Shown: one piece after another, positions 6,470-56,849 of the stretch
Layout: each line of letters starts with the position of its first letter
Numbering within the stretch: the stretch's first letter is position 1
From: an uncultured Bacilli bacterium
GTDB taxonomy: Bacteria; Bacillota_I; Bacilli_A; RF39; UBA660
DNA: 64,000 nt
Direction: 5' to 3'
Assembly (NCBI GenBank): GCA_934101595.1
Contig: CAKORR010000001.1
Coordinates: 107,558-171,557, forward strand
Notes under the pieces: generated by a model
Told to the model about the DNA's origin: nothing
The model's input: only the letters and a program-made list of their open reading frames with translations
Databases searched by the model: none
Translations under genes and position numbers: made by a program

Positions 6470-6573
6470 TTCTTCACTCCTCGTATTTTTCTAACAATTA
6501 TTATACCTAATATGCTTTAAAAACTCAAGGACTATATAAAATTTTAAATAAAAAAAGTTCATAAAAATGAACT

Positions 6574-8109: not shown

Positions 8110-8132
8110 TACAAATCTCCTTATCTTAGATA

Positions 8133-8161: not shown

Positions 8162-8194
8162 TATCTATGACAAAAATATTGCTAAATTGACACT

Positions 8195-25273: not shown

Positions 25274-26167
25274 TTATTTCAAGTATTCATTAGACATTTC
25301 ATCATATTTTTGGTCTAATCGATTAGCTAAATCTTGTTTGGTTATTACCCCGTCCTTATTTAGATCTAATCCTGCATTATAATTATAATAAGACTCGCCT
25401 TTTGTTGCTAAAACATCTTTATTTGCTCTACCTGGTAAGAACATTATTGAATAAAGTGTTCCCGCATCAAGCTCTTGATCTTTATTATAATAATTGCAAT
25501 TTTTTACATATTTTTCAACTAAATCAAGTTGATCTGTTGCGGACATATTAGCTATTTCTTCAGTAGTGTAGCCTAAGCTTTTAGCTGTAGCTGGCATAAA
25601 TTGAATTAATCCTACTGCCCTAGTGCTTTTTTCAATGTGATTTGGATTTAATCCACATTCCGAATACATAATAGCTAGTAAGTCATTGGGATCACAATTA
25701 AGATTTTTAGCGACTTCTTCAACCTTAGCACTAAATCCTGGTTCAAACTTTTGATCCAAACTAGAGGCTAAATTAGCATCTATCACTGTTGTCGCAGTAT
25801 TTGAATTAGTTGTTTTAGCGTTTTCATTATAAGTAAGAGGATCCTTAGAATAGATATCCTCCTCTTTTTTCTGCTCTTCATTTTCAATCGCTTCAGTTGA
25901 CGAAACTATTTCTTTTATTTTACCATTAACAGTATCCGCATATTCTATAAAGTCATTTACCAGAGTAGTAATCCTATTATAGGCAATATTAATAGTTTCA
26001 TTAGCAATTCCTTGTAAGTAGCCATTACTACTAATACTATTTAAATTATGGCGATATTCTTCTAAATCAGATGCTAAATTATTCTTGACTGATTTAATGG
26101 AATTTGCTAAATCATTTAGCTCACTAACATTAACTTTAGTATAAGAAAAATTAGCCATTACTACCAC
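25274..26167 (-). CDS. LXG-like N-terminal domain fused to a family-1 lytic transglycosylase (SLT) domain (candidate effector B)
   Basis: 297 aa with no signal peptide. N-terminus has SNGYLQGIANETINIAYNRI. C-terminus has ...MYSECGLNP...AVGLIQFMPATAKSLGY (SLT E-S ... GLMQ...P-x-TA motif) and a Ca-loop-like DLNKDGVITKQD. Confidence 0.6.
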   Translation of the reverse strand: MVVMANFSYTKVNVSELNDLANSIKSVKNNLASDLEEYRHNLNSISSNGYLQGIANETINIAYNRITTLVNDFIEYADTVNGKIKEIVSSTEAIENEEQKKEEDIYSKDPLTYNENAKTTNSNTATTVIDANLASSLDQKFEPGFSAKVEEVAKNLNCDPNDLLAIMYSECGLNPNHIEKSTRAVGLIQFMPATAKSLGYTTEEIANMSATDQLDLVEKYVKNCNYYNKDQELDAGTLYSIMFLPGRANKDVLATKGESYYNYNAGLDLNKDGVITKQDLANRLDQKYDEMSNEYLK

Positions 26168-34559: not shown

Positions 34560-36086
34560 TTAACTAATATTTAAATCTGCAAATGTATTTGTCGAATAAT
34601 ATCCAAATTTAACGTTATTTTGATTTAAACTTGTATTACCTTCGAAAGGTTTATACTTAGTAGAACTAAGTGTTATTGTTTTATTAATTGTTAAACTATT
34701 TAATTTATTATTTTTAAATGCCGATGAATCAATGGTTACTTCGGAGTTTATCTCTAACTCTGTTATGTTATTACTAGAAAAAGCGTTGTCGCCAATTTCT
34801 TTAAGAGTTGTCGGTAAATAAACATTTGTTAATCCACAATTGGAAAACATTTGCTGTGCTATTTTTTCTAGCCCTTCAGGTAATTCCAATTTAGATATTT
34901 TAATCCCAGGAAAGTATTCATAATCTCCTAAATTCAATTGTTTTAATTTACTTAAATCCACAAGATTGTAAAAACAATCTGTTCTATCTGAGTCATACAT
35001 GCAACTTGCAGAGTTATATAAACCAATTATATAATCTGTACCCATTACTACTTCGGTAGGATTATTTCCAGAATAGTCTGTGCCGCTTTTTAAATACATA
35101 AACTTTATACCATTGTATACGCTGCTGCCATCGTCATTTGTATAGTCGTCGCCAATGCCAATCATTGAATTTGGAATACTAAACAAATCTTTGCTTACTT
35201 CATCAGATAATTCACTATATCTTATAATGCTTTTCGTTTCATAACCACTTTCGCTCGCATCAAATTGATTTACTGCAGCACTTAACGTATTATAATTAGC
35301 TTCGTCAAGAATTACATAAACGTCTTTTGATTCATTTGTGTCTTGATAATATAAAACATTTCCCTTTTGAAAAGCCGGGTTAATCATATTTTTTGGCGTT
35401 ATTCCTTTAATTGTTTCGGGAACTATTATATTTTCACCACATTTATAATTGTTATAGTAACCCAAAAGTCCATTTGATCCTATCAAGAAACAATCTTCGC
35501 TACTTTCTTTTATCCCCTTTTGTGTTTGGCTTGCTACTACTACTACTTTACTATCAAACACCTTATTTTGTTCGGTCATTGGTGTATTTTCATCCATCCA
35601 CATTTTTATACTATGAGTTTTGCTTTTATCCTTTTCACTTGTTCCTAATACTCCAACATATAGTTCTTTATCAAATCTTGCATTTGCCTCTTTTTTGACA
35701 TTTACTGTTTCATATTTAGTAAGAGCTCTTCCCACTTTATTATCTAGAGCTATTTTTATATTACTTTCATCTATATAATTTGTATTTGTGCTATTTGTTA
35801 ATGCCTCTAAATTTACAGAATATGATATTTCATTATTACAATTATTTGTTACGGTAAATTGATATCCGCTTCCTTTTATTCCTTCGCTATCTGGTGTTGG
35901 AAATGTATTATTTAGGGCTATTCCATCTCCATTATCACTAAAGTTTATATCCAAACATGACGAAGTTAATGTATTTACTCCACTTTGACTTTTTGTTACT
36001 TGCCATAACGCATATGTTCCTGCTACTACTAGCGTTATTAATAACATTACTATTATGCTTGTTAAAATTATCTTCCTCTTATTCAT
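34560..36086 (-). CDS. exported surface protein, paralog 2 (TasA-like signal + LRR), driven by a poly-G-containing promoter
   Basis: 508 aa. Residues 5-225 are identical to paralog 1, then a mosaic divergent middle and a similar LRR C-terminus. RBS GAAGGTAGG. Confidence 0.6.
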   Translation of the reverse strand: MNKRKIILTSIIVMLLITLVVAGTYALWQVTKSQSGVNTLTSSCLDINFSDNGDGIALNNTFPTPDSEGIKGSGYQFTVTNNCNNEISYSVNLEALTNSTNTNYIDESNIKIALDNKVGRALTKYETVNVKKEANARFDKELYVGVLGTSEKDKSKTHSIKMWMDENTPMTEQNKVFDSKVVVVASQTQKGIKESSEDCFLIGSNGLLGYYNNYKCGENIIVPETIKGITPKNMINPAFQKGNVLYYQDTNESKDVYVILDEANYNTLSAAVNQFDASESGYETKSIIRYSELSDEVSKDLFSIPNSMIGIGDDYTNDDGSSVYNGIKFMYLKSGTDYSGNNPTEVVMGTDYIIGLYNSASCMYDSDRTDCFYNLVDLSKLKQLNLGDYEYFPGIKISKLELPEGLEKIAQQMFSNCGLTNVYLPTTLKEIGDNAFSSNNITELEINSEVTIDSSAFKNNKLNSLTINKTITLSSTKYKPFEGNTSLNQNNVKFGYYSTNTFADLNIS

Positions 36087-36106
36087 AACTACCTACCTTC
36101 TATTTA

Positions 36107-36137
36107 ACTATACCCCCCCCCCCGCGTATTTTGTCAA
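36107..36137 (-). promoter_or_regulatory. promoter with an 11-nt G homopolymer inside the -35/-10 spacer (putative phase-variation switch)
   Basis: Minus-strand reading is TTGACA (reverse complement of 36132-36137), AAATACGC, G×11 (plus-strand C run 36113-36123), then TATAGT (reverse complement of 36107-36112). Spacer is 19 nt. ATG lies 21 nt further downstream. Confidence 0.6.
36113..36123. repeat. homopolymeric C11 (G11 on the coding strand) tract
   Basis: Counted directly: C at 36113-36123. An 11-nt G/C run in a genome of very low GC. Confidence 0.9.
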
Positions 36138-36164
36138 GCAAAAAAACACGATATATTCGTGTTT
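36138..36164 (-). terminator. intrinsic terminator downstream of the 36177-36548 gene, abutting the -35 box
   Basis: Minus-strand hairpin AAACACG-AATATAT-CGTGTTT followed by TTTTTT, then GCTTGACA. Confidence 0.55.
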
Positions 36165-36176
36165 ACATATGCAAAT

Positions 36177-36548
36177 CTAATTATTATGAGCACTATCATT
36201 ATTTAGTGCCATTGATTCAATCTTAATACTATCACTAGCATTTTCAATGTCTTTTGAAACTTCTGTATCAGTACCTTGTTCAGCTTCTACAGTGTCGTTA
36301 ATAAACTTTGTCATATCGGCAAGTTCGTTTTGTAATGTTTCAATAATAGATTGTGATCCACTATTACAAAAGCTATTAAAATCTTCAAAAAATCTTTCGC
36401 TTTTTGGTCCGATCCATGATTTGTTTTCTTCAAGATTTTTAAAGTCTTTTAAAATGGTTTCAATATTTACGATAGTTGAATTCATATAGTCTTTTAACTT
36501 TGATGATATATTTAAAACTTCATCTGTATTTATATATTTTTCTTGCAT
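36177..36548 (-). CDS. WXG100-like small helical protein (W-I-G-P-K-S subtype)
   Basis: 123 aa with a central ...ENKSWIGPKSERFFEDF. Homologous to the 40493-40810 protein (YWLGPKSAIFAEKI). Acidic C-terminal tail. Confidence 0.6.
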   Translation of the reverse strand: MQEKYINTDEVLNISSKLKDYMNSTIVNIETILKDFKNLEENKSWIGPKSERFFEDFNSFCNSGSQSIIETLQNELADMTKFINDTVEAEQGTDTEVSKDIENASDSIKIESMALNNDSAHNN

Positions 36549-36840: not shown

Positions 36841-38511
36841 TTATGAAGCTTTATTTGCTTTCGCATAAATGTTGCCTGTATTTATATAAGAACCTTTTTC
36901 TAATCTTGTATCAACCCCTTGTTTCTTTTGATAATAATTGGCAATCTCATCAGCACTTTTACCTGCTAACTCTTCTTCAGTAAAGTCTGTTTTAGCATAT
37001 TCCAAATGCAAATGGGTTCCAGATGATCGGCCTGTACTTCCCATTATACCAATTGGACTATCGTCTGTTATAACATCGCCGGCTTTAACTTTAGGAGTCT
37101 CTCTTAAGTGGGCATATCTACTCATATAATACGATATAGTTCCATCATCATTTATTACCTCGTGAAGCATAACAACTTCATTACCATAGCCATAATTTGA
37201 ATGTCCTGAATAGACTACAACTCCCTCTTGGATAGGTTTTATAGAAACATTTTCTCGTGATCCCTCAGGAACATAATCACAGCCCCTATGGTCAAAATAA
37301 CCATTACCAGTGCCGTCTTCACTCCATCTCGAATCTATGTATGAACTAATTCTATATGCGTTATTTAATGGCAAATTTATATCTGTTTTTTCAAAAGAAG
37401 AGGCTTCAACGCTCCAACTTGATTTTGAAAGTTTTTCGTAAGAAGCTAATTTATTTATAACTAATGGCTCTATTTCTTCTTTCTCGGCATCAATATAAGT
37501 TTTAGTTACATTTCCTAAATCATTAGAAGCACCTTTTACAGTTGAAGCTAAACCAGGGATTATTATAACTTGGCCAACTTCTATTTGATTTGGGTTAGAA
37601 ATAGTATCTCTATTTGCTTCATATATTTCTTCCCAATCAACACCATACTTTTCAGCAATTTTACTTAATGAGTCACCGCTTGCAATAGTGTATTTCAAAG
37701 GCTCTGTTTTTTTCTCTCCTTCTACTTCCTCATTTAAAGTTTCATCTGCTAAATCTATTAAAACAACGTCTTCATTATTCTCATATTTTGTAATATTATC
37801 AATATGATTTTTACTTTTAACTATAACATCTGTAGCAGCACTTTTTATTTTCTCGATATTTTTTATGATAACACTTCTAAAAGTGCCAATTGGTTCTCTT
37901 ATTATTTTCGCTTTACCATTATACTTTGATATAACTTCCAAAGTACGATTATCATATGTTGAATTACCTAAAGCAGTAATTGTATTTTCACATATTGTAA
38001 TAAGATTTTCGAATAAAGTCGTAACGTTTTCTGCAAAATCTGTTTGGATGCCGAAAACTTCATTTCTTATCATGCCCTGAACTGCAGGTATATTCCAATA
38101 AATTTTAAATTCTTCTCGTAAAATACCAATTCTACGTTGAGTATCAATAAGTTTATTTTTAGCCCTATAATATTCTTGCATATAATGTTCCCATACGGAT
38201 GTCGAAGCCGTACCATCATTTACATGTTCTTTCATAACGGCACAATTATCAAGAGCATCCATAAATTGCTGAAGATCTATTTTTTCTTCTTCAACAAGTA
38301 TAACCATTTCATCTAATTTATTTATTTGATTGATTACATTATTAACAGATGGATATCCAACACTATTAACCATATCTCTTAACTTTTGGCCAACTTGAAA
38401 AGCAACAAACCCCACCCAAGGATCGCTTTCGCTATCACCAAAAAGAGAATTCGGAGCAATTCTTCGAGAAGTTAAAATCCAATTTTGTAAATCAGTTGTA
38501 TTTATGGCCAT
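36841..38511 (-). CDS. LXG/WXG-like N-terminal domain + LysM + M23 (LytM-type) metalloendopeptidase (candidate effector I)
   Basis: 556 aa with no signal peptide. N-terminus has SLFGDSESDPWVGFVAF (L-x-G and W-x-G). LysM at YTIASGDSLSKIAEKYGVDWEEIYEANRD...GQVIIIPG. M23 motifs FDHRGCD (HxxxD) and GTHLHLEY (HxH) are intact. Confidence 0.65.
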   Translation of the reverse strand: MAINTTDLQNWILTSRRIAPNSLFGDSESDPWVGFVAFQVGQKLRDMVNSVGYPSVNNVINQINKLDEMVILVEEEKIDLQQFMDALDNCAVMKEHVNDGTASTSVWEHYMQEYYRAKNKLIDTQRRIGILREEFKIYWNIPAVQGMIRNEVFGIQTDFAENVTTLFENLITICENTITALGNSTYDNRTLEVISKYNGKAKIIREPIGTFRSVIIKNIEKIKSAATDVIVKSKNHIDNITKYENNEDVVLIDLADETLNEEVEGEKKTEPLKYTIASGDSLSKIAEKYGVDWEEIYEANRDTISNPNQIEVGQVIIIPGLASTVKGASNDLGNVTKTYIDAEKEEIEPLVINKLASYEKLSKSSWSVEASSFEKTDINLPLNNAYRISSYIDSRWSEDGTGNGYFDHRGCDYVPEGSRENVSIKPIQEGVVVYSGHSNYGYGNEVVMLHEVINDDGTISYYMSRYAHLRETPKVKAGDVITDDSPIGIMGSTGRSSGTHLHLEYAKTDFTEEELAGKSADEIANYYQKKQGVDTRLEKGSYINTGNIYAKANKAS

Positions 38512-38627: not shown

Positions 38628-40484
38628 CTACATTATATCTCGTAACATTTCCGTATACTTCTTATTTAAACGATTAGCTAGATCTTGTTTAGTTATTACT
38701 CCATCGCCATCCACGTCTAAACCCCTATTATAAGAATAATAGCTTTCGCCTTTGACACATAAAGTATTTTTCTTGGCTCTACCTGGTAAGAACATAACCG
38801 CATATAATGTACCAGCATCTAATTCTTCGCCATTTTTGTAAGGACTAGCGCTTTTAATATATTTTTCAACTAAATCAAGTTGATCTGTTGCGGACATATT
38901 GGCTATCTGTTCAGTCGTGTAACCAAGATTACGAGCAGTGCTTGGCATAAATTGGATAAGGCCAACAGCTCTACTACTGCTTTCAATATGAGATGGATCA
39001 AGAGCACATTCTGAATACATAAGAGCAAGTAAATCATTTGGATCACAATTAACATTTTTAGCGACTTGTTCTAGTTTAGCACTAAATCCTGGCTCGAATC
39101 TGTCATCCAAACAACTTGCTAAAGCACTATCTAATACTTCTACTTTAGGAGAGCTAGTATTAGTACTTGTCTGAGCCGCGGATACTCCTTTTTCATTTGC
39201 TCTTTTATGGGCAGCTTCATTTCTATCTTTAGTTGCTTGTTCTCTTTCACTAATTTCCTTAGTATCACTTTCTTTAGATACAGCTTCTTTAACTTCTGTT
39301 TTTTCTTTAACCTCAGATTTTTTATCATCCTTACCAGATTCTGTTTCGTCAGTCTTTTTAGTTGCCACACTAACAGAACCAATGGCTGCAGCACCAATTA
39401 CGCCTTCAAATACTGGAGGGTTAATATCAAATGCTTCCTCTTCTTTTTCCTCAAACTTAAGACCTGTATATTTGCTAATAACATCTGCGGCACTTACAGG
39501 ATCATTACTTTCTTCTTTTTGACCTGGAATTGTAAGCACTTGTCCAGGATATATCAAGTTTGGATTATCGATCTTATCAGCGTTTGCTTCATAAAGCTCT
39601 TTCCAGTCAATTCCATATTTCGCTGCAATTTTAATTAAATAGTCACCTTTTTCAACAACATATGTTCCGTGATTAGAAGATGTACTATCACTACTAGTCC
39701 TTTTTCTTTCTTTAGCATATTCAAAGTCATTACGATATTCAAATTGTTTAATCTTGGCAAAATGATATTTTAACAAATTTAATTGGCGAGTTGCTTCATC
39801 AAGACATTTTTTAATATTAACTTTTATATTATTACACGCTGAATAGAAAAAACCACTAACTTGATAATCACTAGAAGATAAATCGTCATTGCCACTTGGA
39901 ATTTGAAAATCACTTGACCTCATGGAATTCATATTCAACATTTGCATATTTAAATATTTTACTATATTATTTAAGGGCTCAATGACTTGCTTCTCAAAAG
40001 TTGCTAAGTTTATCTCATATTTATCTGAATTATAGTTTTCCCATGGAGTAACCTCTATTTCCACAATTGGAGTTAAAACAGAAACTATTTCTTCTTTCTT
40101 TTTGATGATTTTCTTTTTTAATTCTTTAAGTGTCGAAGATATTATAATCTTTTGTTGAGCCAACATATAAACGTCCGCATGATCTTTATATGCAATTTCT
40201 TCATCTATAGTTTTGCACGCTTTGTATTTACTTTCATAAGATAACTTTAGGGCAAGTAAACCATCGGTTGGATTCATTACTAAATCAACCGCTTTGCTAT
40301 AATCTTTTAGCTGGTACATAATGCCTTCATTTTGGATATAGCTCAACATTCTATCAATAATATAGCATCTCCGCTTTAATTCAGCTGCTCTTTTTCCGTA
40401 AAACATCAAAGTTGCCGGATTAAATCTTTTAGATATCTGATATGCAAGAAAAATATTATTTGTATCTATTTTTACTTTAACCAT
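38628..40484 (-). CDS. LXG-like N-terminal domain + LysM + family-1 lytic transglycosylase (SLT) (candidate effector H)
   Basis: 618 aa with no signal peptide. N-terminus has ...LMFYGKRAAELKRRCYII (compare F-x-G-K-x-A-x-x-I-K of LXG domains). LysM at YVVEKGDYLIKIAAKYGIDWKELYEANAD...GQVLTIPG, then a K/E-rich low-complexity linker. The C-terminal SLT domain is about 70% identical to that of 25274-26167 (MYSECALDP...AVGLIQFMPSTARNLGY). Confidence 0.65.
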   Translation of the reverse strand: MVKVKIDTNNIFLAYQISKRFNPATLMFYGKRAAELKRRCYIIDRMLSYIQNEGIMYQLKDYSKAVDLVMNPTDGLLALKLSYESKYKACKTIDEEIAYKDHADVYMLAQQKIIISSTLKELKKKIIKKKEEIVSVLTPIVEIEVTPWENYNSDKYEINLATFEKQVIEPLNNIVKYLNMQMLNMNSMRSSDFQIPSGNDDLSSSDYQVSGFFYSACNNIKVNIKKCLDEATRQLNLLKYHFAKIKQFEYRNDFEYAKERKRTSSDSTSSNHGTYVVEKGDYLIKIAAKYGIDWKELYEANADKIDNPNLIYPGQVLTIPGQKEESNDPVSAADVISKYTGLKFEEKEEEAFDINPPVFEGVIGAAAIGSVSVATKKTDETESGKDDKKSEVKEKTEVKEAVSKESDTKEISEREQATKDRNEAAHKRANEKGVSAAQTSTNTSSPKVEVLDSALASCLDDRFEPGFSAKLEQVAKNVNCDPNDLLALMYSECALDPSHIESSSRAVGLIQFMPSTARNLGYTTEQIANMSATDQLDLVEKYIKSASPYKNGEELDAGTLYAVMFLPGRAKKNTLCVKGESYYSYNRGLDVDGDGVITKQDLANRLNKKYTEMLRDIM

Positions 40485-41182: not shown

Positions 41183-41209
41183 ATAAAAAAGAAACATTTT
41201 TAATGTTTC
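41183..41209 (-). terminator. intrinsic terminator overlapping the mutS stop codon
   Basis: Minus-strand hairpin GAAACAT-TAAAA-ATGTTTC followed by TTTTTT. Confidence 0.5.
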
Positions 41210-43755
41210 TTTCTCTCTTCTTTAAGTTTATATAATATATTTAAGGCATCAATTGGGGTTGTATTTAAAATATCAAGTCTATCTATTTCTTCTAAAATTT
41301 TGTTAGATTCTTGTAAGGTATTATCAAAAGACATAGACAATTGAACATTATTTTCTTTTTTCTTTTTAGTTGGATTATTCTCGTATTTTTTTAATATTTC
41401 ATCAGCTCTTTTGATAAGTTCATCTGGCATGCCCGCAAGTTTAGCTACATGAATACCATAGCTTTTATCAATGGCACCATCTTTGACTTTATGCAGAAAA
41501 ACTATTTTTTCATTTTCTTCATAAGCTCTAACATGAACGTTTTTAATAGATGGATAAACTTTTTCTAATGACGTAAGTTCATGGTAATGAGTTGAAAATA
41601 ATGTTTTACAACCTATATGTTTAGTAATATATTCAAGTATTGCTTCGGCAAGGCTCATTCCATCGAATGTAGCTGTACCTCTACCTAACTCATCAAAAAG
41701 TATTAAACTATTTTTGGTAGCGTTTACTATAGCATTTTTTGCCTCGGTCATTTCAACCATGAATGTAGATGATCCACTAACTAAATCATCACTGGCTCCA
41801 ATTCTAGTAAAAATCTGATCTATTAGGGGCAATGTCGCACTTTTAGCTGGGACAAATGAGCCCATTTGAGCCATTATAACAATAATTGCAAGCTGTCTCA
41901 TGTATGTTGATTTACCTGACATATTTGGACCGGTTATTAATAAAGTATTTATATTGCTATCCATAACGATATCATTAGGAACATACTCATCTTTAATTAC
42001 TTTCTCTACAACAGGATGCCTTCCATCACGAACGATTAATTTAAATTCATCTGAAAAGGTTGGACGTACAAAGTTGTATTCTTCCGCACAATGAGCTAGT
42101 GATGTTATGGCATCTAATTCACTAATTATGTATGCAGCTTTTTTTAAATCTAAAATTTCACTTTTAATTTTGTCTTTAATTTCTAAAAACAAATTATATT
42201 CTAACTCAATAATATTTTCTTCAGCGTTTAAAATAAGTGATTCTTTTTCCTTTAAAAGTGGCGAAATATATCTTTCACAATTACTTAAAGTTTGTCTTCT
42301 TTCCCATTTGAATTCATCTTTTACGTAACTGGCTTGACCTTTAGATACTTCTATGTAATATCCAAATACTTTGTTATAGCCAACTTTAAGATTTTTTATC
42401 CCTGTTTGTTCTTTAACCTCTTTTTCAAAATTAGCTAAAAAGTCTTTTCCTCCACTACGAACTTTTTTTAATTCATCTAATTCTTTATTATAGCCATCTT
42501 TTATTAAATATCCCTCTTTTAGAGAAACTGGAGGATTTTCATAAATACCTTTTTCTAGTAATTCATATAAATTATCAAACGTTTTAAATTCATAGTTAAA
42601 TTTTAAATCTTTAATTATTTTACTAATATCAGGAAATACTTTTAAACTAGTTTTTAATTGTAACAAATCACGAGCATTTATATTTCCACAAGTGATTTTT
42701 CCACACAATCTTTCTATATCATAAACCATGTCTAATTTATTTCTTAATTCATCTTTTAAAATAAACTCATTATTTAAAGTTTCAATTTTATCATAACGTT
42801 CATTAATTAAATTAACATTTTTTAATGGATTAAGTAACCAATTTTTTAAAAGACGACTGCCCATCGCTGTTTTAGTTTTATCAATCAACCAAATTAGCGA
42901 ATATGTTCTTTCTTTTAAGCGAAGAGTTTCCACAAGTTCTAGGTTTCTAATGGTATGAACATCCATTATTAGATAATCGTCTTTATTTATTACATTAACT
43001 TTATCGATATGATCAAGAATCTTTAACTCGCGTACTACTAGATAATACAAAAGATGCTTAACACCCATTTTAGCTCGTGCATCACTTACTGAATCAACTA
43101 TTTTTTCATACTTTTCTTCTAGAAATTTATCACTAATAGATACTTCAATTCCATAGTTGTTTTTAAGTGTATCTATAAGCTCTACCTGTAAATTATTTTC
43201 CAAAATAACTTCTTTAACATTTAGACTTAATAATTCACTAATTAACTTTGTCAAATCATGAGTAATAGATAAAGAATTAATAACTCCCGTCGAAATATCC
43301 GCGTAAGTAATCATATAGATATAATTAAAGTCAAGCACACTAGCAATGTAACTATTATCATGTTCACTTAGTAATTCATAGTCTGCAATAGTTCCCTTAC
43401 TTAATACTTCAACAACACCTCGTTTAACCATTCCTTTAGTTGTTTTAGGATCTTCCAATTGCTCACATATTGCAACTTTATATCCCTTATCAATCAACTT
43501 TTCAAGGTAAGGCTTTACTGAATGAAAAGGAACGCCACACATCGGAATTCGCTCAGAAAGTCCGGCATTTTTTCCAGTTAATGTTAATTCAAGTTCTTTA
43601 GATGCTGTTATACCATCTTCAAAAAAAAGTTCATAAAAGTCTCCCAAGCGAAAAAAAAGCAATTCTTCTGGATATTCGTTTTTAATTTCAATATATTGCT
43701 TCATCATTGGGCTTAATTTTTCAAAATCTACATCGTTTCTTTTCATATTTACCAC
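41200..43755 (-). CDS. mutS: DNA mismatch repair protein MutS
   Basis: 851 aa with an N-terminal mismatch-binding domain (...MKQYIEIKNEYPEELLFFRLGDFYELFFED...), Walker A GPNMSGKST, and a C-terminal HTH. Confidence 0.9.
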   Translation of the reverse strand: MVNMKRNDVDFEKLSPMMKQYIEIKNEYPEELLFFRLGDFYELFFEDGITASKELELTLTGKNAGLSERIPMCGVPFHSVKPYLEKLIDKGYKVAICEQLEDPKTTKGMVKRGVVEVLSKGTIADYELLSEHDNSYIASVLDFNYIYMITYADISTGVINSLSITHDLTKLISELLSLNVKEVILENNLQVELIDTLKNNYGIEVSISDKFLEEKYEKIVDSVSDARAKMGVKHLLYYLVVRELKILDHIDKVNVINKDDYLIMDVHTIRNLELVETLRLKERTYSLIWLIDKTKTAMGSRLLKNWLLNPLKNVNLINERYDKIETLNNEFILKDELRNKLDMVYDIERLCGKITCGNINARDLLQLKTSLKVFPDISKIIKDLKFNYEFKTFDNLYELLEKGIYENPPVSLKEGYLIKDGYNKELDELKKVRSGGKDFLANFEKEVKEQTGIKNLKVGYNKVFGYYIEVSKGQASYVKDEFKWERRQTLSNCERYISPLLKEKESLILNAEENIIELEYNLFLEIKDKIKSEILDLKKAAYIISELDAITSLAHCAEEYNFVRPTFSDEFKLIVRDGRHPVVEKVIKDEYVPNDIVMDSNINTLLITGPNMSGKSTYMRQLAIIVIMAQMGSFVPAKSATLPLIDQIFTRIGASDDLVSGSSTFMVEMTEAKNAIVNATKNSLILFDELGRGTATFDGMSLAEAILEYITKHIGCKTLFSTHYHELTSLEKVYPSIKNVHVRAYEENEKIVFLHKVKDGAIDKSYGIHVAKLAGMPDELIKRADEILKKYENNPTKKKKENNVQLSMSFDNTLQESNKILEEIDRLDILNTTPIDALNILYKLKEERKKH

Positions 43756-48356: not shown

Positions 48357-50030
48357 TTATAATTCATATTTAACTACAGCATCACCGCTCCAGTTACTTC
48401 CTAAAGTCATTCCTGTTGCATCAGCTCTTTTTATAGTAATTGTTGATGCATTAGTTAGGCCATTAAATGCTCTATCATCTATTTTGGTTACACTATTTGG
48501 AATAATGACATTTGTAATTGTTGACTGAGCAAACGCGGCGTTATAAATTTCCGTATATCCTTGGGCAATTTCTAATTTATTAATTTTCATGTTTGTGAAT
48601 GCGCCATTAGCAACTGTTTCATTAGTATTAATATGGCCTAAAATATCATGACCAGTTACATACGTAAATGTTAAATTATTAATGGTTGACCCTTCAAAAT
48701 ATCCTATTGCACTATACTCATTTACAGGGTTAAATATTAATGATCCATAAAGTTCTAGAGTATCAATATTACTATAGGCAAATGCTCCAACACCAATTTT
48801 TATATCACTAGTATTAACTCCAAAATTTAGACTTGTTAGTCCAACTCTTTGAGTTTGTGTTGTATCAAGTTCATATGATGTTTTTCCATCACTTGTCGTC
48901 TCTTTATACATAACATTTGAAAATGCAAATTTTTCTATTTCTTCTAGTTTAGTGGCTTTTGAGAAATTAACACCTTTTATTACTAAAGAAGCACTAACTT
49001 TTGGCGTTTGGCTTACCGTCATTTCACCGTCTTCACTTTCAGGTAAAATATAATATAATCCTTCTTCTCCAGCCGTTGCCGTTTCGGGTACATCAGATTC
49101 TTTAGTTACATAAGTAATAGTTGCTGTTTGATCCTCTTCTGTTAAACCATTTAGTAATGCTTCTATACGTGATCTATTTGATTCATTTTTTACAAGAATA
49201 TAATATTTCATTCCTATGTAAACATCGTTAGTAGAGTCATATGTTGCATTTGATGAATCATTCCACATCATAAAATCAGTTAAGTCCTTTTCTTGTCTAA
49301 ATGCACTTGTTGCTATTTTCTTAACATCTTTTTTATTAACACTTTCAGGAATAACTACATTTTCTCCACATGAAGTATCATATGCGGTAATCACTCCATT
49401 AGAATCTATTGTAAAGCAGTTTTCTGGAGTAGCAACTAAACCTTCATTGTCATTTTTAATTCCTTGTCCACCCGTTATAAATATTTTTCCATTAAATTGT
49501 TTTCCTTGTTCAGTAATAGGTGCATTTTCATCAATCCATATTTTTAGCAAATGAGTCTTAGTGGCATTACCACCTATAGATGCGGTTTTTAATTCTTTTG
49601 ATGATCTATAAGTATCAGGGCCTTCGATATCATTTAAACTACCATATGTTCCTAAAACCTCATTATCTATAGATAGTGCAACAGCACTATCTGACATATA
49701 TCCCGTATTTGCATCCCCATCTACTGATTCCAAACCTATAATATAATTTACGGCATTACTACAATTATTAGTTACCGTAAAAGTGTATCCAGTTAAATCA
49801 TTTTGAGCATTAGCACTAGTCATTGGCCAGCTATTTTCTAAACTGATGGGTGTGCCTTCGCCTACTTTATTAAGATCTAAATCTAGACATGCCGCGATCA
49901 TGCTATTTTTATCTTTTTGAGTTTTAGTTACTTGCCATAAGGCATAAGTCGAAGCAACTATTATTAAAAGAACTAAGCAGATTCCAATAGACATACCAAT
50001 AATTTTATTACGTCTAACACTATTTTCCAT
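48357..50030 (-). CDS. exported surface protein, paralog 3 (TasA-like signal + LRR)
   Basis: 557 aa. N-terminus ...LLIIVASTYALWQVTKTQKDKNS. Shared core CFTIDSNGVITAYDTSCGENVVIPESV. LRR-like C-terminus. Upstream TTGACT-18nt-TATTAT promoter candidate has no homopolymer. Confidence 0.6.
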   Translation of the reverse strand: MENSVRRNKIIGMSIGICLVLLIIVASTYALWQVTKTQKDKNSMIAACLDLDLNKVGEGTPISLENSWPMTSANAQNDLTGYTFTVTNNCSNAVNYIIGLESVDGDANTGYMSDSAVALSIDNEVLGTYGSLNDIEGPDTYRSSKELKTASIGGNATKTHLLKIWIDENAPITEQGKQFNGKIFITGGQGIKNDNEGLVATPENCFTIDSNGVITAYDTSCGENVVIPESVNKKDVKKIATSAFRQEKDLTDFMMWNDSSNATYDSTNDVYIGMKYYILVKNESNRSRIEALLNGLTEEDQTATITYVTKESDVPETATAGEEGLYYILPESEDGEMTVSQTPKVSASLVIKGVNFSKATKLEEIEKFAFSNVMYKETTSDGKTSYELDTTQTQRVGLTSLNFGVNTSDIKIGVGAFAYSNIDTLELYGSLIFNPVNEYSAIGYFEGSTINNLTFTYVTGHDILGHINTNETVANGAFTNMKINKLEIAQGYTEIYNAAFAQSTITNVIIPNSVTKIDDRAFNGLTNASTITIKRADATGMTLGSNWSGDAVVKYEL

Positions 50031-50130
50031 ATATTAACCTACTTTCTATGTTAATAATACAATTAACTCTTTTGGATAGTCAATATAAATTAAATAAATA
50101 AACATTTTTTTACATAAAAAAAGCCCTATA

Positions 50131-51951
50131 TTAAGGCTCAAATTTAATTGTTGCATTGCTACTCCAATTTTCACCTAAAGTCATGCCATCTAGATTTGCT
50201 CTTTTCATAATTATTGTGTCTTTTTCTATAGCACCAGCAAATGCCTTTTCGCCAATAATCTTAACATTTTTAGGCACGACTATAGAAGTTAATAAAAAGT
50301 CGTTTTCACTATCTTCATCACTAAAAACAAATTGATATCCGCCAATTTCGATTAATGATTCTGGCAAATTTACATTTTTTATAAATACGCTTTGAAATGA
50401 TTGTTCACTTATTTTAGTAATGCCTTCGCTTATATTAACAGTTGTAACATAGGATAGAAAAAATTGGCCGCTTAAAACCGATCCGATTACTCCGCCAACA
50501 GTTGTATCATCAACAGTTTTATCTTTATAGTCAATCACAGTATTATCCTTAGATGGTTTAATTGTTAGATTATTAATTGAACTCATACCAAATGTTTGTG
50601 AATTGTATCCTTTTTCTATAGTGCCTGTAAGCGAATTATAAACTGTTAATTTATCAAGTTTGCTAAACAAAAAAGCCCCCGTACCTATTTTTATGGCATT
50701 ATCATTAGCCCCAAAATTAATATAAGTTAATCCAAAATCTAAAGAATTATCAAAATTATCTTTACCATTAGCAGTTGCCTTATCATAATTTGCTGAAATT
50801 TTATCAAGACCAGCTTCGGTCGTACCATCATAAAGGGTAAATGCATATGGTTCTATTTCTTCTAAGTAAATTGCTTTTGAAAAATCTACTCCTTTAATAG
50901 TAAATATATTGTCCTTATAAGGAGTTTGAGCTAATAAAAATTCATCCTCGCCATTCTCATCCTTGGCAATAATGCCATACTTACCTTCTTCTGTTTCACT
51001 CGCTGTTGTTGGAAGTTCTGATTCGTTATTTATGAAAAAGTTATTTGAGGCTTCTTCTTCAGATACTTTTTTAAAAAACTCTTCTATTCTACTCTTGGCT
51101 TTGTCATTTTTAACTATTATATAATACTTTATTCCTGTAGTCTTATCTTCTTTTTCATCATACACCGAAGAACTTAAATCTTCCCAAAGCAAAAAATCTG
51201 TAACATCTTTTTCTGGTCTAAATGCGTTAGTAGCGATCTTTTTTACTTTGACATTGTTAACGCTTGCAGGTATTACAACCATTTCTCCACAAGAATCATC
51301 ATATTTAGAAATAATTCCATTAGAATCTATTGTAAAACATTTTTCCGGAGTTGCTAATAACCCTGGATTATCATTTAAAATTCCTTGACCACCAGTTATA
51401 AATATTTTTCCATTAAAGGCTTTTCCCTGTTCCGTAATAGGAGCTCTTTCATCAATCCATATTTTTAATAAATGCGTATTGGTTTCTTTTCCCTTGATTT
51501 CAGCAGTTTTTATTTCTTTTGATAAAATATATGTATCAGGGCCTTCGATATCATTTAAGCTATTAAATGTTCCTAACACATCGTCATCAATTGCTAATGC
51601 AACTGCTGATGCACTTAAACTTGCTAGCCTTTCATCTTCTAATGATTCAAGTCCTATTACATAACTTATTGGCGTATCACAATTATTAGTTACGGTAAAT
51701 GTATATCCTGTTAATTCTTTTACGGCATCAACCGCATTCATAGGCCAACTATTTTCAAGGTTAATAACACTACCTTCACCAGTTTTGTTAAGATCAAGAT
51801 CTAGGCATGCCGCAATCATACTATTTTTATCTTTTTGCGTTTTAGTTACTTGCCATAAGGCATAAGTCGAAGCAATTATAATTAGAAGTACCAGAGCAAT
51901 TCCTATAGATACCCCTATAATTTTGTTATGTTTATTATTTTCACTTTTCAT
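50131..51951 (-). CDS. exported surface protein, paralog 4 (TasA-like signal + LRR), driven by a poly-G-containing promoter
   Basis: 606 aa. N-terminus ...LLIIIASTYALWQVTKTQKDKNS. In tandem with paralog 3. RBS TAGGATGG. Confidence 0.6.
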   Translation of the reverse strand: MKSENNKHNKIIGVSIGIALVLLIIIASTYALWQVTKTQKDKNSMIAACLDLDLNKTGEGSVINLENSWPMNAVDAVKELTGYTFTVTNNCDTPISYVIGLESLEDERLASLSASAVALAIDDDVLGTFNSLNDIEGPDTYILSKEIKTAEIKGKETNTHLLKIWIDERAPITEQGKAFNGKIFITGGQGILNDNPGLLATPEKCFTIDSNGIISKYDDSCGEMVVIPASVNNVKVKKIATNAFRPEKDVTDFLLWEDLSSSVYDEKEDKTTGIKYYIIVKNDKAKSRIEEFFKKVSEEEASNNFFINNESELPTTASETEEGKYGIIAKDENGEDEFLLAQTPYKDNIFTIKGVDFSKAIYLEEIEPYAFTLYDGTTEAGLDKISANYDKATANGKDNFDNSLDFGLTYINFGANDNAIKIGTGAFLFSKLDKLTVYNSLTGTIEKGYNSQTFGMSSINNLTIKPSKDNTVIDYKDKTVDDTTVGGVIGSVLSGQFFLSYVTTVNISEGITKISEQSFQSVFIKNVNLPESLIEIGGYQFVFSDEDSENDFLLTSIVVPKNVKIIGEKAFAGAIEKDTIIMKRANLDGMTLGENWSSNATIKFEP

Positions 51952-51973
51952 ATTTTACTACCATCCTATTTTA

Positions 51974-52003
51974 ACTATACCCCCCCCCGGAGCATTTTGT
52001 CAA
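51974..52003 (-). promoter_or_regulatory. promoter with a 9-nt G homopolymer inside the -35/-10 spacer (putative phase-variation switch)
   Basis: Minus-strand reading is TTGACA (reverse complement of 51998-52003), AAATGCTCC, G×9 (plus-strand C run 51980-51988), then TATAGT (reverse complement of 51974-51979). Spacer is 18 nt. The flanks are conserved with the 36107-36137 cassette. Confidence 0.6.
51980..51988. repeat. homopolymeric C9 (G9 on the coding strand) tract
   Basis: Counted directly: C at 51980-51988. Confidence 0.9.
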
Positions 52004-52034
52004 ATAAAAAAACATATGCTTTTAACATATGTTT
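52004..52034 (-). terminator. intrinsic terminator downstream of the TPM-domain gene, abutting the -35 box
   Basis: Minus-strand hairpin AAACATATG-TTAAAAG-CATATGTTT followed by TTTTTTATT, then TGACA. Confidence 0.55.
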
Positions 52035-52048
52035 ACATAAGAAAAATT

Positions 52049-52801
52049 TTAAAAACCACGTGAACTTCCGCCACCACCGGAAGAGCCTCCACCTCCAGAG
52101 AATCCTCCAAATGATGAATGACTAGACGAAGAGTCACTATCGCCAAAGCCAAAGAATAAAGTGTTATTTCTTCTTCGACCACCAGGTTTTTGATTACGGC
52201 TTGCAATAAGGACGATTATAACGAATATAAAAATTATACCCAAGCGAAAGAACACTTCATAATCTACATTGCTTTCTTTTTCTGGACTATCTACAGAGCC
52301 ATCATAATTATAATAGTCAGCCACTTCTTTAAAAAATGCTTTATAACCATTTAACATTCCTTCATTAAAATCATTAGTTTTAAAGTAAGGAATCATATAC
52401 TCATCTTGAAATCTTCCTGTTTTACCATCTGGTAATATGCCCTCTAAACCATATCCAACTTCTACGCGCATTTTTCTTTCTTCCAAAGATAATAACAATA
52501 ATAAGCCATTATTCTCATTCTTATTACCAATCTTGAAATTACGGAATAATTGTGTAGCATATTCTTCCAAACTTGCTCCATTTAAATTTGGTACTGTTAC
52601 TACAACGATTTGAGCTGTTGTTTTACTGGCAAGTGCTACACTATGCTCTTGGATATAATTTTCAGTTTCACTATCTAGTATGTTAGCATAATCATTAACA
52701 TAATAATTTCTTGTTGGAGTAACAGTTTCAAATGCTAAAACGTGTTCTTTAGGAATACATAAAACTACTAAAAAAAGAAAAAAGAATAAAATCTTTTTCA
52801 T
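52049..52801 (-). CDS. TPM-domain (YgcG-like) protein with Gly-rich C-terminus
   Basis: 250 aa: signal peptide, TPM/phosphatase-like domain (...YANILDSETENYI...QIVVVTV...), a TM helix, then a GGGGSSGGGGSS tail. Immediately downstream of lemA, a conserved pair. Confidence 0.7.
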   Translation of the reverse strand: MKKILFFFLFLVVLCIPKEHVLAFETVTPTRNYYVNDYANILDSETENYIQEHSVALASKTTAQIVVVTVPNLNGASLEEYATQLFRNFKIGNKNENNGLLLLLSLEERKMRVEVGYGLEGILPDGKTGRFQDEYMIPYFKTNDFNEGMLNGYKAFFKEVADYYNYDGSVDSPEKESNVDYEVFFRLGIIFIFVIIVLIASRNQKPGGRRRNNTLFFGFGDSDSSSSHSSFGGFSGGGGSSGGGGSSRGF

Positions 52802-53489: not shown

Positions 53490-56400
53490 TTAAATTTTCT
53501 CGATATCAATTAGTACTTCATGAGAATTTATATCAAGCTTCTCATTTAAATTATCCTTTTTAGAAATTTCAACAGCTAAAGTTTCATCTTTAATATATTG
53601 TTCAAATTCTTTGAATGATTTTTCTATTTCTTGATCAGCATTGTAATATAATTTTATACGATCAACTACATCAAAGTCTTTATTTTTTCTTAATTGTTGA
53701 ACTTTAGAAACGATTTCTCTAGCATTTCCTTCAAGAATTAATTTATCTGTTAATTCAGTATTTAAAATAACAAATAAATTATTATCCATGCCAACATTAA
53801 AGCCTTCTTTATTAGAAATTCTAATATCAATTAGATCACGAGTAATTTCATAATCCTTACCATTTATTTTTAAAGTAACAGATTCACTATTTTCTAGTTT
53901 TTTAATAGAATCTTTGTCTAACTCTTTTAAAGCATTTTGATATTCTTTAATATCTTTGCCAAATACTTTACCTGCCTCTTTAAAGTTCGGTCTAATTTCT
54001 AAATTCATGTATTCATTTAAATCATCATTAAACTTAACATTTTTAACGTTCAACTCTTCTTCAATCAACCATACTAAATCATCAATAATAGCTTTTTTTC
54101 CGCCATCTAAGATAATCTCACTTAAAGGTTGACGAACCTTTATTTTGTTTTCTTCCCTAACCATACGTCCAATCGAAATTAAATCTCTTACTAAATCCAT
54201 CTTTTCTTCTAATTTATCATTTATTAGCGATAAATCATACTTAGGGAAATCTTCTAAATGAACAGATTCTTTGTCAGTCAAATTGGTAAATATTTCCTCA
54301 CTAATAAAAGGAGTGATTGGGGCAATCATTTTTGATAACCCAACTAATACATCATATGTAGTTTTATATACAGCTTTTTTTGAATTATCTAAATCGCTTT
54401 GCCAGAACCTTTTTCTATTTCTTCTAATATACCAGTTAGATAAGTCATTTGAAACAAACTCTGTTACAGCTTTGACAACTTTATTTAAATCATATTCATC
54501 ATAACTATCAGTAACATATTTTAAAAGTTTATTATATTTTGATAAAAGCCACTTATCTATTTCTTCTAAATCATCATATGATACATCACATGCATTAATA
54601 TCAATCTCATCCGTATTAGCATACATAGCAAAGAAATTATAGGTGTTTTTTAGAGGATTAAAGAATTTAGAATATACTTCTTTCATACCATTTATATCAA
54701 ATTTAAGTGGAGTCCATACTGGTGATACGTATGGTAAATAGAATCTTACTACATCAGCACCATACTCTTTAATTGTTGTAAATGGTTCGACTATATTGCC
54801 TCTACTTTTAGACATCTTATGTCCATCTTTATCTTGAATTAGATCATTTACTAATACGCTTTTAAATGGGCTTACCCCTTTTACAAAAACTGAAATAACA
54901 AGTAGCGTATAGAACCAACCTCTTGTTTGATCTATGCCTTCACAGATAAAATCAGCAGGAAACTGAGAATTGAACAACTCTTCATTTTCAAAAGGATAAT
55001 GATACTGAGCAAATGGCATTGATCCAGAATCAAACCAACAATCAATTACATCTTTTGCACGAGTCATTTTTCCTTGACATTTAGGGCATCTTAAATGAAC
55101 ATTATCTACATATGGTCTATGTAATTCAATAGATGTATCAATATCTTCGATTGCAAGATCTACAAGTTCTTTTCTACTTCCAACCATGATACTGTGACCA
55201 CATTCACAAATCCAATATGGAAGTGGGGTTCCCCAATATCTTGAACGAGATATTGCCCAATCTTTTAAATTCTCAAGCCAATTTCCAAAACGCTTCTCGC
55301 CAACATATTCTGGATACCATTTAACTTTTTTATTTGCTTCAATTATTTTATCTTTAATTTTTGTTATTTCAAGATAATAACTAGGTTTTGAATAGTAAAT
55401 AAGTGGTGAATCACATCTCCAGCAATGAGGATAAGCATGAACTATTTTTTGCTTTTTAAATAGTTTATCATTTTTCTTTAAATATTCTATAACTAACTTG
55501 TCGGCATCAAAAACGTTCATACCTTTCCATGGACCGTCTAAATATTTTCCATCTTCTCCTACTGGATTTAAATATGGTAAATTATATTTTTTACCTACGT
55601 TAGCGTCATCTTCACCAAATGCAGGAGCTAAGTGAACAATACCGGTACCATCTTCCATTGTTACATAGTTATCTACAGTTACGTAAAATGCCTTTTTGTT
55701 AACTGATAAGCCAGGAATTAATTGCTCATATTCACTATACTCTAAATCTTTACCTAAATAAGTTCCTAATATTTCATATTCATCTCCTAGAACCTTATTA
55801 GCTAATTTTTTTGCTAAAATAAATTTATAACCTTGAGAAAGAACTTTAACATATTCTTCATTAGGATTTACACATAATGCCACATTGGCAACTAAAGTCC
55901 AAGGAGTTGTTGTCCATACTAAGAAGTAAACATCCTCATCTTTTTTCTTCATAGGAACAATAACTGTTTCTACTGAAACATCTTTATATCCTTGCGCAAC
56001 TTCATGTGAAGCTAAACCTGTTCCACATCTAGGACAATATGGTAATATTTTAGATCCTTCATAAAATAGTCCCTCATCAAAGAATTTTTTTAATATCCAC
56101 CATTCAGTTTCAATATAATCATTTTGATAAGTTACATAAGGATGTTCCAAATCAATGAATTGGCCCATTTTACTAGTCAATAATGAAAAAGCCTTTTCAT
56201 TTTTCCAAACACTTTCACGGCACTTTTTATTAAATTCTTCGATACCATATTTTTCGATATCTTTTTTGCCACTAAAGCCTAACTCTTTTTCTACTTGCAA
56301 CTCAACTGGAAGGCCATGAGTATCCCATCCAACTTTTCTTAATACTCTCTTACCTTGCATTGTTTTGTACTTACAAAATGTATCTTTTAAAAACTTAGCA

Positions 56401-56585
56401 AGCATATGATGTAAACCTGGAAGTCCGTTAGCTGTTGCAGGGCCATCATAAAAAACAAAGTTTTCACAATTTTTTCTATTTTCAATTGTTTCTTCTAATA
56501 TCTTGTTAACTCCGCCCCATTTTTTTAGAATACTTTCTTCAACTTGATCAACAGGTCTTTTGTCTAATTCTTTAAAATTTTTCAT
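53490..56585 (-). CDS. ileS: isoleucine--tRNA ligase (long, type-2-like form)
   Basis: About 1030 aa class I aaRS with a HIGH-region variant (...GLPGLHHMLAKF...) and KMSKSRGN. Size and insertions fit IleRS. The start is set at MKNFKEL (ATG 56583-56585) with an AAAGGA RBS rather than the longer track ORF. Confidence 0.85.
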   Translation of the reverse strand: MKNFKELDKRPVDQVEESILKKWGGVNKILEETIENRKNCENFVFYDGPATANGLPGLHHMLAKFLKDTFCKYKTMQGKRVLRKVGWDTHGLPVELQVEKELGFSGKKDIEKYGIEEFNKKCRESVWKNEKAFSLLTSKMGQFIDLEHPYVTYQNDYIETEWWILKKFFDEGLFYEGSKILPYCPRCGTGLASHEVAQGYKDVSVETVIVPMKKKDEDVYFLVWTTTPWTLVANVALCVNPNEEYVKVLSQGYKFILAKKLANKVLGDEYEILGTYLGKDLEYSEYEQLIPGLSVNKKAFYVTVDNYVTMEDGTGIVHLAPAFGEDDANVGKKYNLPYLNPVGEDGKYLDGPWKGMNVFDADKLVIEYLKKNDKLFKKQKIVHAYPHCWRCDSPLIYYSKPSYYLEITKIKDKIIEANKKVKWYPEYVGEKRFGNWLENLKDWAISRSRYWGTPLPYWICECGHSIMVGSRKELVDLAIEDIDTSIELHRPYVDNVHLRCPKCQGKMTRAKDVIDCWFDSGSMPFAQYHYPFENEELFNSQFPADFICEGIDQTRGWFYTLLVISVFVKGVSPFKSVLVNDLIQDKDGHKMSKSRGNIVEPFTTIKEYGADVVRFYLPYVSPVWTPLKFDINGMKEVYSKFFNPLKNTYNFFAMYANTDEIDINACDVSYDDLEEIDKWLLSKYNKLLKYVTDSYDEYDLNKVVKAVTEFVSNDLSNWYIRRNRKRFWQSDLDNSKKAVYKTTYDVLVGLSKMIAPITPFISEEIFTNLTDKESVHLEDFPKYDLSLINDKLEEKMDLVRDLISIGRMVREENKIKVRQPLSEIILDGGKKAIIDDLVWLIEEELNVKNVKFNDDLNEYMNLEIRPNFKEAGKVFGKDIKEYQNALKELDKDSIKKLENSESVTLKINGKDYEITRDLIDIRISNKEGFNVGMDNNLFVILNTELTDKLILEGNAREIVSKVQQLRKNKDFDVVDRIKLYYNADQEIEKSFKEFEQYIKDETLAVEISKKDNLNEKLDINSHEVLIDIEKI

Positions 56586-56619
56586 AACCATTTCCTTTCT
56601 AAAATAAAAAACACCCATC

Positions 56620-56800: not shown

Positions 56801-56849
56801 CATTGCTTTTATAGTCATTAGTATATCACAATTTTTTTAAATATCTAGT

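Follow-up and report, generated by a model that had tools for sequence, protein, structure and literature searches.

A putative slipped-strand poly-G promoter switch upstream of two BspA-type leucine-rich repeat genes in an uncultured gut Bacilli bacterium

Introduction

Phase variation in the gut microbiota has been mapped mostly via invertible promoters, and homopolymers located in the promoter spacer are to our knowledge described almost only for pathogens, namely Neisseria, Haemophilus, Treponema pallidum, and mycoplasmas. In Mycoplasma hyorhinis, for example, several paralogous vlp genes each have their own promoter with a poly-A tract in the spacer. The closest described systems are porA of N. 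meningitidis and tp0126 of T. pallidum, in which a poly-G tract lies between the -35 and -10 hexamers; transcription is maximal at a spacing of 17 nt and is lost one or two bases off this optimum (PMC7864442, PMC3899988). In this study, we analyzed a 64-kb stretch of DNA from an uncultured human-gut Bacilli bacterium (contig CAKORR010000001.1; hereafter the window), in which two paralogous genes for BspA/TpLRR-type leucine-rich repeat (LRR) proteins, paralogs A and B, are preceded by related intergenic regions, cassettes A and B, each with a G tract within its promoter. Each of these is probably a slipped-strand phase-variable promoter of the porA/tp0126 type, which drives a predicted membrane-anchored LRR protein.

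Further described systems share single aspects of this locus. For tp0126, which encodes an OmpW homologue, single isolates contain tracts of 7-11 G side by side, and tracts are also present at several paralogous tpr genes of T. pallidum; in tprL, where tract and -10 region overlap, a mechanism via spacing was excluded (PMC7864442). A TA dinucleotide repeat in the -35/-10 spacer of Haemophilus influenzae hifA/hifB sets the on/off state of surface structures (PMC3899988). BspA-like proteins of Candidatus Mycoplasma girerdii are phase-varied by simple sequence repeats (SSRs), as seen in a metagenome (PMC5476646), and in Bifidobacterium breve G10-G11 tracts control a sortase pilus, for which length heterogeneity was measured and shifts in vivo (PMC9187656). 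Full-text literature searches retrieved no description of a poly-G switch in the promoter spacer, either for BspA-type genes or for gut Bacilli.

Results and Discussion

Two LRR paralogs share a promoter cassette with a G tract

Cassettes A and B comprise the full intergenic regions upstream of the two genes and lie on the minus strand at the places given by the initial annotation, with all elements listed there present in both (Table 1). The common order is ATGTAAACA, whose last five bases open the following terminator hairpin, then the hairpin itself, T7, two bases, and TTGACAAAAT; downstream follow 4-5 variable nt, where 3-4 nt had been reported, the G-run, TATAGTTAAA, a Shine-Dalgarno (SD)-like GGTAG, and the ATG. 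The tracts thereby lie between the -35 and -10 of the gene in the arrangement TTGACA-(AAAT+N4-5+Gn)-TATAGT, with hexamers near consensus, and both G11 and G9 exceed the length of about 8 nt from which a homopolymer is regarded as slippable. The B promoter was called by the promoter scan as TTGACA-18-TATAGT with 11/12 matches, while the A promoter was not called because its 19-nt spacer falls outside the 16-18 range of the scan. A terminator lies directly upstream of each promoter, and the scan gave no alternative promoter. With a transcription start site (TSS) about 7 nt after TATAGT, the predicted 5'-untranslated region (UTR) has about 14 nt, which is little more than the SD. A riboswitch or leader mechanism was rejected, since the leaders are short and without fold and no Rfam family was found in cassette A or B.

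Table 1. Positions of the cassettes, their elements, the LRR paralogs, and the T-box leader in the window.
Feature	Position	Strand	Description
Cassette A	36087-36176	minus	Full intergenic region, from 123-aa ORF (36177-36548) to LRR paralog A
ATGTAAACA in A	36160-36168	minus	Overlaps 5' arm of terminator hairpin
A terminator hairpin	36144-36164	minus	AAACACGA-ATATA-TCGTGTTT; T7 reaches 36140
A -35	36132-36137	minus	TTGACA; TTGACAAAAT starts at 36137; then conserved AAAT + variable ACGC (36124-36131)
A tract	36113-36123	minus	G11; directly abuts -10; -35/-10 spacer 19 nt
A -10	36107-36112	minus	TATAGT, then conserved TAAA
A SD-like	36092-36100	minus	GAAGGTAGG; start codon 36084-36086
Cassette B	51952-52048	minus	Full intergenic region, from TPM-domain gene (52049-52801) to LRR paralog B
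ATGTAAACA in B	52030-52038	minus	
B terminator hairpin	52010-52034	minus	AAACATATG-TTAAAAG-CATATGTTT; T7 reaches 52006
B -35	51998-52003	minus	TTGACA; TTGACAAAAT starts at 52003; then AAAT + variable GCTCC (51989-51997)
B tract	51980-51988	minus	G9; abuts -10; -35/-10 spacer 18 nt
B -10	51974-51979	minus	TATAGT, then TAAA
Cassette C	50031-50130	minus	Tract-less homologue upstream of paralog C
Cassette C elements	50054-50117	minus	TTATGTAAA 50109-50117; TTGACT 50078-50083; ordinary 18-nt spacer; TATTAT 50054-50059
D promoter	8110-8194	minus	TTGACT-17-TATAAT (8133-8161); canonical AAGGAG SD; upstream of paralog D
Paralog A	34560-36086	minus	508 aa: N-terminal transmembrane (TM) helix, beta-sandwich, variable middle, C-terminal BspA/TpLRR-type LRR
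Paralog B	50131-51951	minus	606 aa, architecture as A; 29% identical to A
Paralog C	48357-50030	minus	Adjacent to B; cluster P0053, apparently representing C, 50% identical to B
Paralog D	6574-8109	minus	88% identical to A
T-box leader	56619-56812		118 bits; upstream of ileS (53490-56618)

Both hairpins are stable, are followed by a U-run, and stand at the end of an upstream gene, as is characteristic of Rho-independent terminators. In A, the terminator scan found 8 pairs and T7, and the fold has -10.7 kcal/mol (z -2.9). The B hairpin (-9.6 kcal/mol, z -2.85) was missed by the scan because it is too AT-rich. Between copies, the stem interiors differ by paired changes (C-G/G-C to T-A/A-T), and the AAA...TTT base is kept.

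In a global alignment of A and B, 68 of 96 positions are identical (71%, z = 15.5 against shuffles). This is less than the base-for-base likeness described initially, and the similarity extends past the hexamers and the homopolymer. Differences had been attributed solely to the hairpin arms, the nucleotides next to the tract, and the tract length; the alignment adds the 5' flank, the two nucleotides before the -35, an extra A after TTAAA, the SD-to-ATG spacer, and the loop length (5 vs 7 nt with a 9-pair stem; in the minimum free energy fold the loop closes to 3). Within the window, TTGACAAAAT-N3-6-G7 as a composite is present at the two cassettes and nowhere else, while 100 shuffles gave an expectation of 0. 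Also, G8 or longer is found only here (0.1 expected), and the 64 kb contain no further G or C run of 6 or more. Single elements, i.e. TTGACAAAAT and GTATAGTTAAA with up to 1 mismatch and TTATGTAAA, are not enriched in the window; it is the composite alone that is significant.

Tract length differs between samples on constant flanks

The two loci of the window were compared with 10 further metagenome contigs carrying locus A or B, giving 12 sequences in total (Table 2). The flanks are 94-99% identical, whereas the tract is polymorphic, by which the distance between TTGACA and TATAGT ranges from 17 to 20 nt. At locus A, the remaining 100 nt upstream are identical except for two single-nucleotide polymorphisms (SNPs) in the window copy. 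The near-constant sequence of about 100 nt upstream of the genes contrasts with the encoded proteins, for which the differences reach 10% at A and 14% at B. No other indel was found among near-identical copies of A or B, and T7 is constant there; only L048 has more.

Table 2. G-tract length and -35/-10 spacing at loci A and B.
Locus	Sequence	5' flank of tract	Tract	Spacer (nt)
A	Window	ACGC	G11	19
A	L004	ACGCC	G10	19
A	L040	ACGCC	G10	19
A	L041	ACGCC	G9	18
A	L039	ACGCC	G8	17
B	Window, L001, L002	GCTCC	G9	18
B	L003	GCTCC	G10	19
B	L046, L047	GCCTC	G11	20
B	L048	TAACC	G10	19

The sequence L048 is an 86%-identical orthologue of B with an insertion in the UTR and with changes in the tract-adjacent bases, the UTR, and the hairpin arms. 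These arms changed compensatorily (AAATATATG...CATATATTT, -7.6 kcal/mol, z about -2.9), and TTGACAAAAT, the tract, and TATAGTTAA are retained. In the homologous but tract-less cassette C, which precedes paralog C, the five sequences compared (window and four contigs) differ by substitutions (about 9% at most) and not by indels.

In the contigs L002 and L003, 23 and 4 nt, respectively, precede the -35, as if the assemblies had been interrupted there. Together with L023 of the survey described below, this makes three contigs whose first base is 0-25 nt away from a promoter with a tract. Assemblies may be interrupted at tract promoters, by which such switches would be hidden in metagenome-assembled genomes (MAGs).

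A proposed phase-variable promoter

Each cassette would represent a self-contained expression unit for one surface-protein gene. The intrinsic terminator, with its T-run just upstream of the -35, would insulate the unit from the upstream gene; as hairpin and T7 stop transcription from unrelated upstream genes, expression would depend solely on the switchable promoter. This promoter would be of the near-consensus sigma-70 type (TTGACA/TATAGT), with AAAT, 4-5 variable bases, and the G homopolymer as spacer. During replication, slipped-strand mispairing at the G-run would lead to gain or loss of single Gs and thereby shift the -35/-10 spacing in 1-bp steps (17, 18, 19, 20 nt), so that transcription would switch heritably and reversibly between high, intermediate, and off, independently for A and B. 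A cell population would thus hold mixed surface-protein repertoires, besides two further paralogs under ordinary promoters. By analogy with porA and tp0126, the spacers of 17-20 nt would span the range from optimal to inactive. The ON state would be expected at 17 or 18 nt, and with the spacers of the window, A (19 nt) would be in a low or off state and B (18 nt) in an intermediate one. The initial annotation had called both paralogs switchable, for which the length polymorphism between samples is a good basis; an effect on expression and heterogeneity within a population would follow from the proposed mechanism.

Origin of the shared cassette

Cassette C, the homology of which to A and B had been overlooked in the initial annotation, is in register with the other two for TTATGTAAA, TTGAC, GTAT, TTAA, TAG, and GTAG (B vs C, z = 3.2), and its promoter TTGACT-18-TATTAT was called by the promoter scan. 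The place of the G-run is taken in C by ordinary sequence, and the hairpin of C is decayed; the terminator of B itself, which lies just upstream, accounts for this. The region upstream of paralog D is of a constitutive type and without similarity to the cassette. Thus, the two other paralogs are indeed free of a tract, as had been stated. Judged from sequence, the upstream modules of three paralogs (A, B, and C) out of the four go back to a single ancestral form. The sequence (T)TATGTAAA at 36160-36168, 52030-52040, and 50109-50117 forms the invariant 5' edge of A, B, and C in every sample; this 9-mer persists even in C despite the decayed hairpin and is not enriched window-wide.

The identities between the cassettes are 68-70% for A-B, 49-52% for B-C, and 47-51% for A-C. 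The cassettes thereby pair as A-B, while the genes pair as (A,D) and (B,C), so that the cassette tree conflicts with the gene tree. Either selection kept the A and B promoters near the ancestral form while C drifted after loss of the tract, or the promoters of A and B were exchanged.

The cassette was also searched for elsewhere. A scan of viral contigs gave 0 matches, and a metagenome scan gave one contig only, which represents locus A. Genome and metagenome scans revealed no copy at unrelated loci, where the species of the window itself has no match in the scanned genome collection.

Alternative explanations

Several points weigh against a spacing switch by slippage. The spacers are mostly 18-20 nt with only one of 17 nt, which means that OFF or low states prevail or that a G-rich spacer has its optimum elsewhere than at 17. 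The lengths are consensus values of assemblies throughout, and errors are frequent for G-tracts in short reads and databases (PMC9187656). As some contigs may stem from one strain or host, independence cannot be assumed for all 12 sequences. Furthermore, the window contains mutS; mismatch repair may dampen slippage, and its completeness bears on the slippage rate. With respect to artefacts, G homopolymers are indeed hard to sequence and two contigs end near the tract, but it is extremely improbable that the tracts or their length differences arose by sequencing or assembly: the tract is at the same promoter position in 12/12 sequences from several studies and assemblers, i.e. in the window and in all 10 further contigs, it is kept between paralogs of only 29% identity and in the 86%-identical orthologue with diverged spacer bases and 5'UTR, it is placed precisely between the promoter hexamers, and its lengths span 4 nt. 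On this point, the initial annotation was right. More serious is a length-dependent control that does not act via spacing, e.g. via open-complex formation, contacts at -14/-15, or a protein binding the G-run. Such a mechanism was argued for T. pallidum tprL (PMC7864442), and a G-run-binding protein was proposed for tprL and tprE/G/J; moreover, the tract always touches the -10, here and in 22/25 analogous promoters of other phyla, and the preponderance of spacers above 17 nt fits as well. We nevertheless regard this control as unlikely, as the tract lies wholly between two near-consensus hexamers, so that any change in length alters the spacing, and porA and tp0126 with the same anatomy act as spacing switches.

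There is likewise little probability that the tract is an evolutionary tuning knob, in which stable strain-specific lengths set constitutive levels without appreciable switching within a population. Length differences were seen only between samples, and L046 and L047 agree in G11 as well as in the flanking SNPs, which may mean that length follows lineage; against this stand the four lengths at locus A on an otherwise identical background, the intrinsic instability of G9-G11 tracts wherever measured, and the starts of L002 and L003, which lie no more than about 25 nt from the tract and would be explained by heterogeneity encountered during assembly. Concerning the origin, the initial annotation had described the cassette as a mobile or duplicated module. 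Duplication is supported by the 68-70% identity of the A and B cassettes in front of proteins sharing only 29%, and by the degenerate, tract-less version at the sister gene of B. Mobility is not supported: insertion of an independently mobile promoter element before two genes could explain why the A and B cassettes are closer to each other than those of B and its sister C, and also why A and D change abruptly near the start codon from unrelated upstream DNA to identical coding DNA. This junction, however, is accounted for by gene conversion of the coding region (see below), and the decayed C homologue in register implies inheritance together with the gene. Copies are confined to one paralog family, with neither viral matches nor unrelated loci among the genome and metagenome contigs, and no terminal repeats, target duplications, or flanking repeats beyond the terminator hairpin were seen as would be typical of a mobile element like a miniature inverted-repeat transposable element. 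Independent mobility is therefore highly improbable, and the slipped-strand spacing switch on a duplicated module is the reading that we prefer.

Comparison with described systems

As in porA, a G homopolymer of about 9-11 is located in the sigma-70 promoter spacer of a surface-protein gene. In contrast to porA, the locus belongs to a spore-forming, low-GC gut bacterium of the Gram-positive type, its tract directly adjoins the -10, and the cassette has its own terminator and is common to two paralogs. In porA, changes by one nucleotide shift the spacing around 17 nt and grade transcription from high to none (PMC7864442, PMC3899988), and a comparable effect is predicted here. T. pallidum also combines poly-G between -35 and -10 with several tract-bearing paralogs, and the survey described below found at least 6 promoters with the same design in gut or oral Treponema; however, there is no sequence homology, and the regulated proteins of T. 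pallidum are outer-membrane porins instead of LRR proteins. With hif and vlp, the locus shares a spacer repeat that sets the spacing of a surface-structure promoter, although the repeat here is poly-G.

With Ca. M. girerdii, the common features are a multi-copy BspA/TpLRR-type surface family, an uncultivated low-GC host of the Firmicutes/Mollicutes type, and variation driven by SSRs. Its repeats are mostly coding-region dinucleotides, which act by frameshift as a translational on/off switch, whereas a promoter homopolymer with graded transcription is proposed here. B. breve likewise is a gut commensal with a G-tract controlling a surface feature, but the tracts there lie within genes and exert their effect via frameshift; tracts in promoter spacers are mentioned in that study and are not its subject (PMC9187656).

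The mechanism is known, being textbook knowledge for pathogens, and in itself will not surprise a specialist; host and gene family are new. The locus offers a clean, sequence-defined example in uncultured human-gut Bacilli, and the BspA-type LRR proteins probably touch host or partner cells. If the promoters truly switch, metagenome assemblies under-report a layer of surface heterogeneity, and contigs break at such sites. The signature of TTGACA, a short spacer, a G-run of 8 or more, and TAnnnT could be used to catalogue switches across MAG collections.

G-tract promoters in other species

One genome per species from 185,579 species was scanned with the pattern TTGACAAAAT-N3-6-G6-N0-12-TATAGT, which yielded 34 loci (L005-L038). 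The tract lengths are bimodal, with nine G6, no G7, and 25 of G8-G14. Although the pattern did not demand abutment, 22 of the 25 long tracts run straight into the TAnnnT hexamer, and the spacers are mostly 16-21 nt with a mode at 18-19. The hosts of long tracts include Treponema, Lachnospiraceae, Ruminococcaceae, Faecalibacterium, Granulicatella, Muribaculaceae, Segatella, and others. Most downstream N-termini, read by sequence, are lipoprotein- or signal-peptide-like (Treponema, Faecalibacterium, Segatella, Ruminococcaceae). By Pfam, the YSIRK-type signal of Granulicatella (G13-14) was confirmed, as were a NusG-like protein in Lachnospiraceae and a Peptidase_C11 protein in Treponema. Near-identical cassettes differing only in the tract were also found, i.e. 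L021/L022 (G10/G11), L029/L033 (G14/G13), and L026/L037 (G11/G9). The survey loci represent analogues rather than homologues; they lend support to the mechanism and show that the design also exists outside the window. The downstream protein of L023, a locus of a Bacilli MAG, gave an impression of similarity by eye and was rejected as not significantly homologous.

The pair L026:483-511 and L037:3412-3438 from the Ruminococcaceae MAG HGM13225 precedes two paralogous secreted proteins with nearly identical cassettes and spacers of 17 and 15 nt. It is an independent example of the shared switch-cassette design.

The G6 matches were left out of the analogue set. Their downstream ORFs, judged by eye, mostly begin like CsoR repressors or copper ATPases; that of L016 is HrcA-like, and L025 has none. 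The G-run in these matches is probably part of a CsoR-type operator rather than an SSR. Several loci (L019, L020, L031, L034; also L007, L030, L006) have TTGACAAAATAC(A/C)..GGGGGGTATAGT, representing conserved promoters of such CsoR-like repressor or copper-ATPase genes in halophilic Bacillaceae and others.

Proteins of the LRR paralogs

The paralogs have an LRR_5 domain (Pfam PF13306) above the Pfam gathering score and a TpLRR-like fold, and the AlphaFold2 model shows an N-terminal helix at residues 3-32. Neither an LPXTG motif nor a lipobox was seen in the paralog proteins. This helix may represent an anchor or a cleaved signal. With the helix, the beta-sandwich, and the TpLRR-type LRR, the products of A and B resemble surface proteins and are probably exposed at the surface. 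From an NCBIfam search with the N-terminal 190 aa, directed at named families in general and at a SipW-type signal, no usable match was obtained, and an exact-protein look-up of paralog A and P0001 gave no match.

Paralogs A and D share a perfectly identical run of 635 nt (35398-36032 = 7418-8052), which starts 54 nt into the gene, and the N-terminal 230 codons are common to both almost base for base. As the upstream regions of the two genes are unrelated, this points to a recent gene conversion homogenizing the N-terminal module; at the DNA level, recombination within the paralog family is evident. The center of A is hypervariable (nt 900-1350, about 34736-35186), with 65-74% identity between A and D and 73-85% among A alleles of different samples, in comparison to 93-100% for the rest of the gene. 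This segment coincides with the region of low pLDDT around residues 310-350.

Taken together, a broader and rather doubtful reading combines a G-tract design that recurs in several phyla with a head/stalk layer in this host. As to the design, the combination of a -35 of consensus type with a G8-G14 tract against the -10 and a leader of minimal length, often shared by paralogs and largely unannotated, seems to have evolved repeatedly at surface-protein genes of host-associated Bacillota, Spirochaetota, and Bacteroidota. As to the layer, constitutive D and switchable A share the homogenized N-terminal module (TM helix and TasA-like beta-sandwich) and differ in the hypervariable middle, by which a population could vary the 'head' on a constant 'stalk'.

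Host and genomic surroundings

The window has 28% GC, and nearly all genes are on the minus strand. It comprises genes of the core chromosome, such as ileS with its T-box leader (Table 1), lon, a murC-like gene, mutS, nusB, xseA, ftsA/ftsZ, spoIIGA-sigE-sigG, and spoIVB. The closest named Lon proteins, annotated as "MAG: Bacilli bacterium", have about 58% identity, and the contigs with the same genes originate from human gut metagenomes including Hadza samples. The host is an uncultured, spore-forming, low-GC member of the gut Bacilli.

Downstream of mutS (41200-43755), two small ORFs (124 and 105 aa; no Pfam match) and a LysM/SLT hydrolase gene are found, not mutL. A second duplicated gene array of the window consists of paralogous cell-wall hydrolase genes with SLT, LysM, and M23 domains (25274-26167 and 38628-40484; also 36841-38511), which have 72% DNA identity across 300 nt and are each preceded by small ORFs without Pfam match. 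Paralog D is located directly upstream of ftsA-ftsZ-spoIIGA-sigE-sigG (1778-8109), and in the distant relative L045 (132-3899) a family member with 34% identity (P0014) lies between sigE and sigG. The linkage of the LRR paralog family with the sporulation sigma-factor cluster is thus recurrent.

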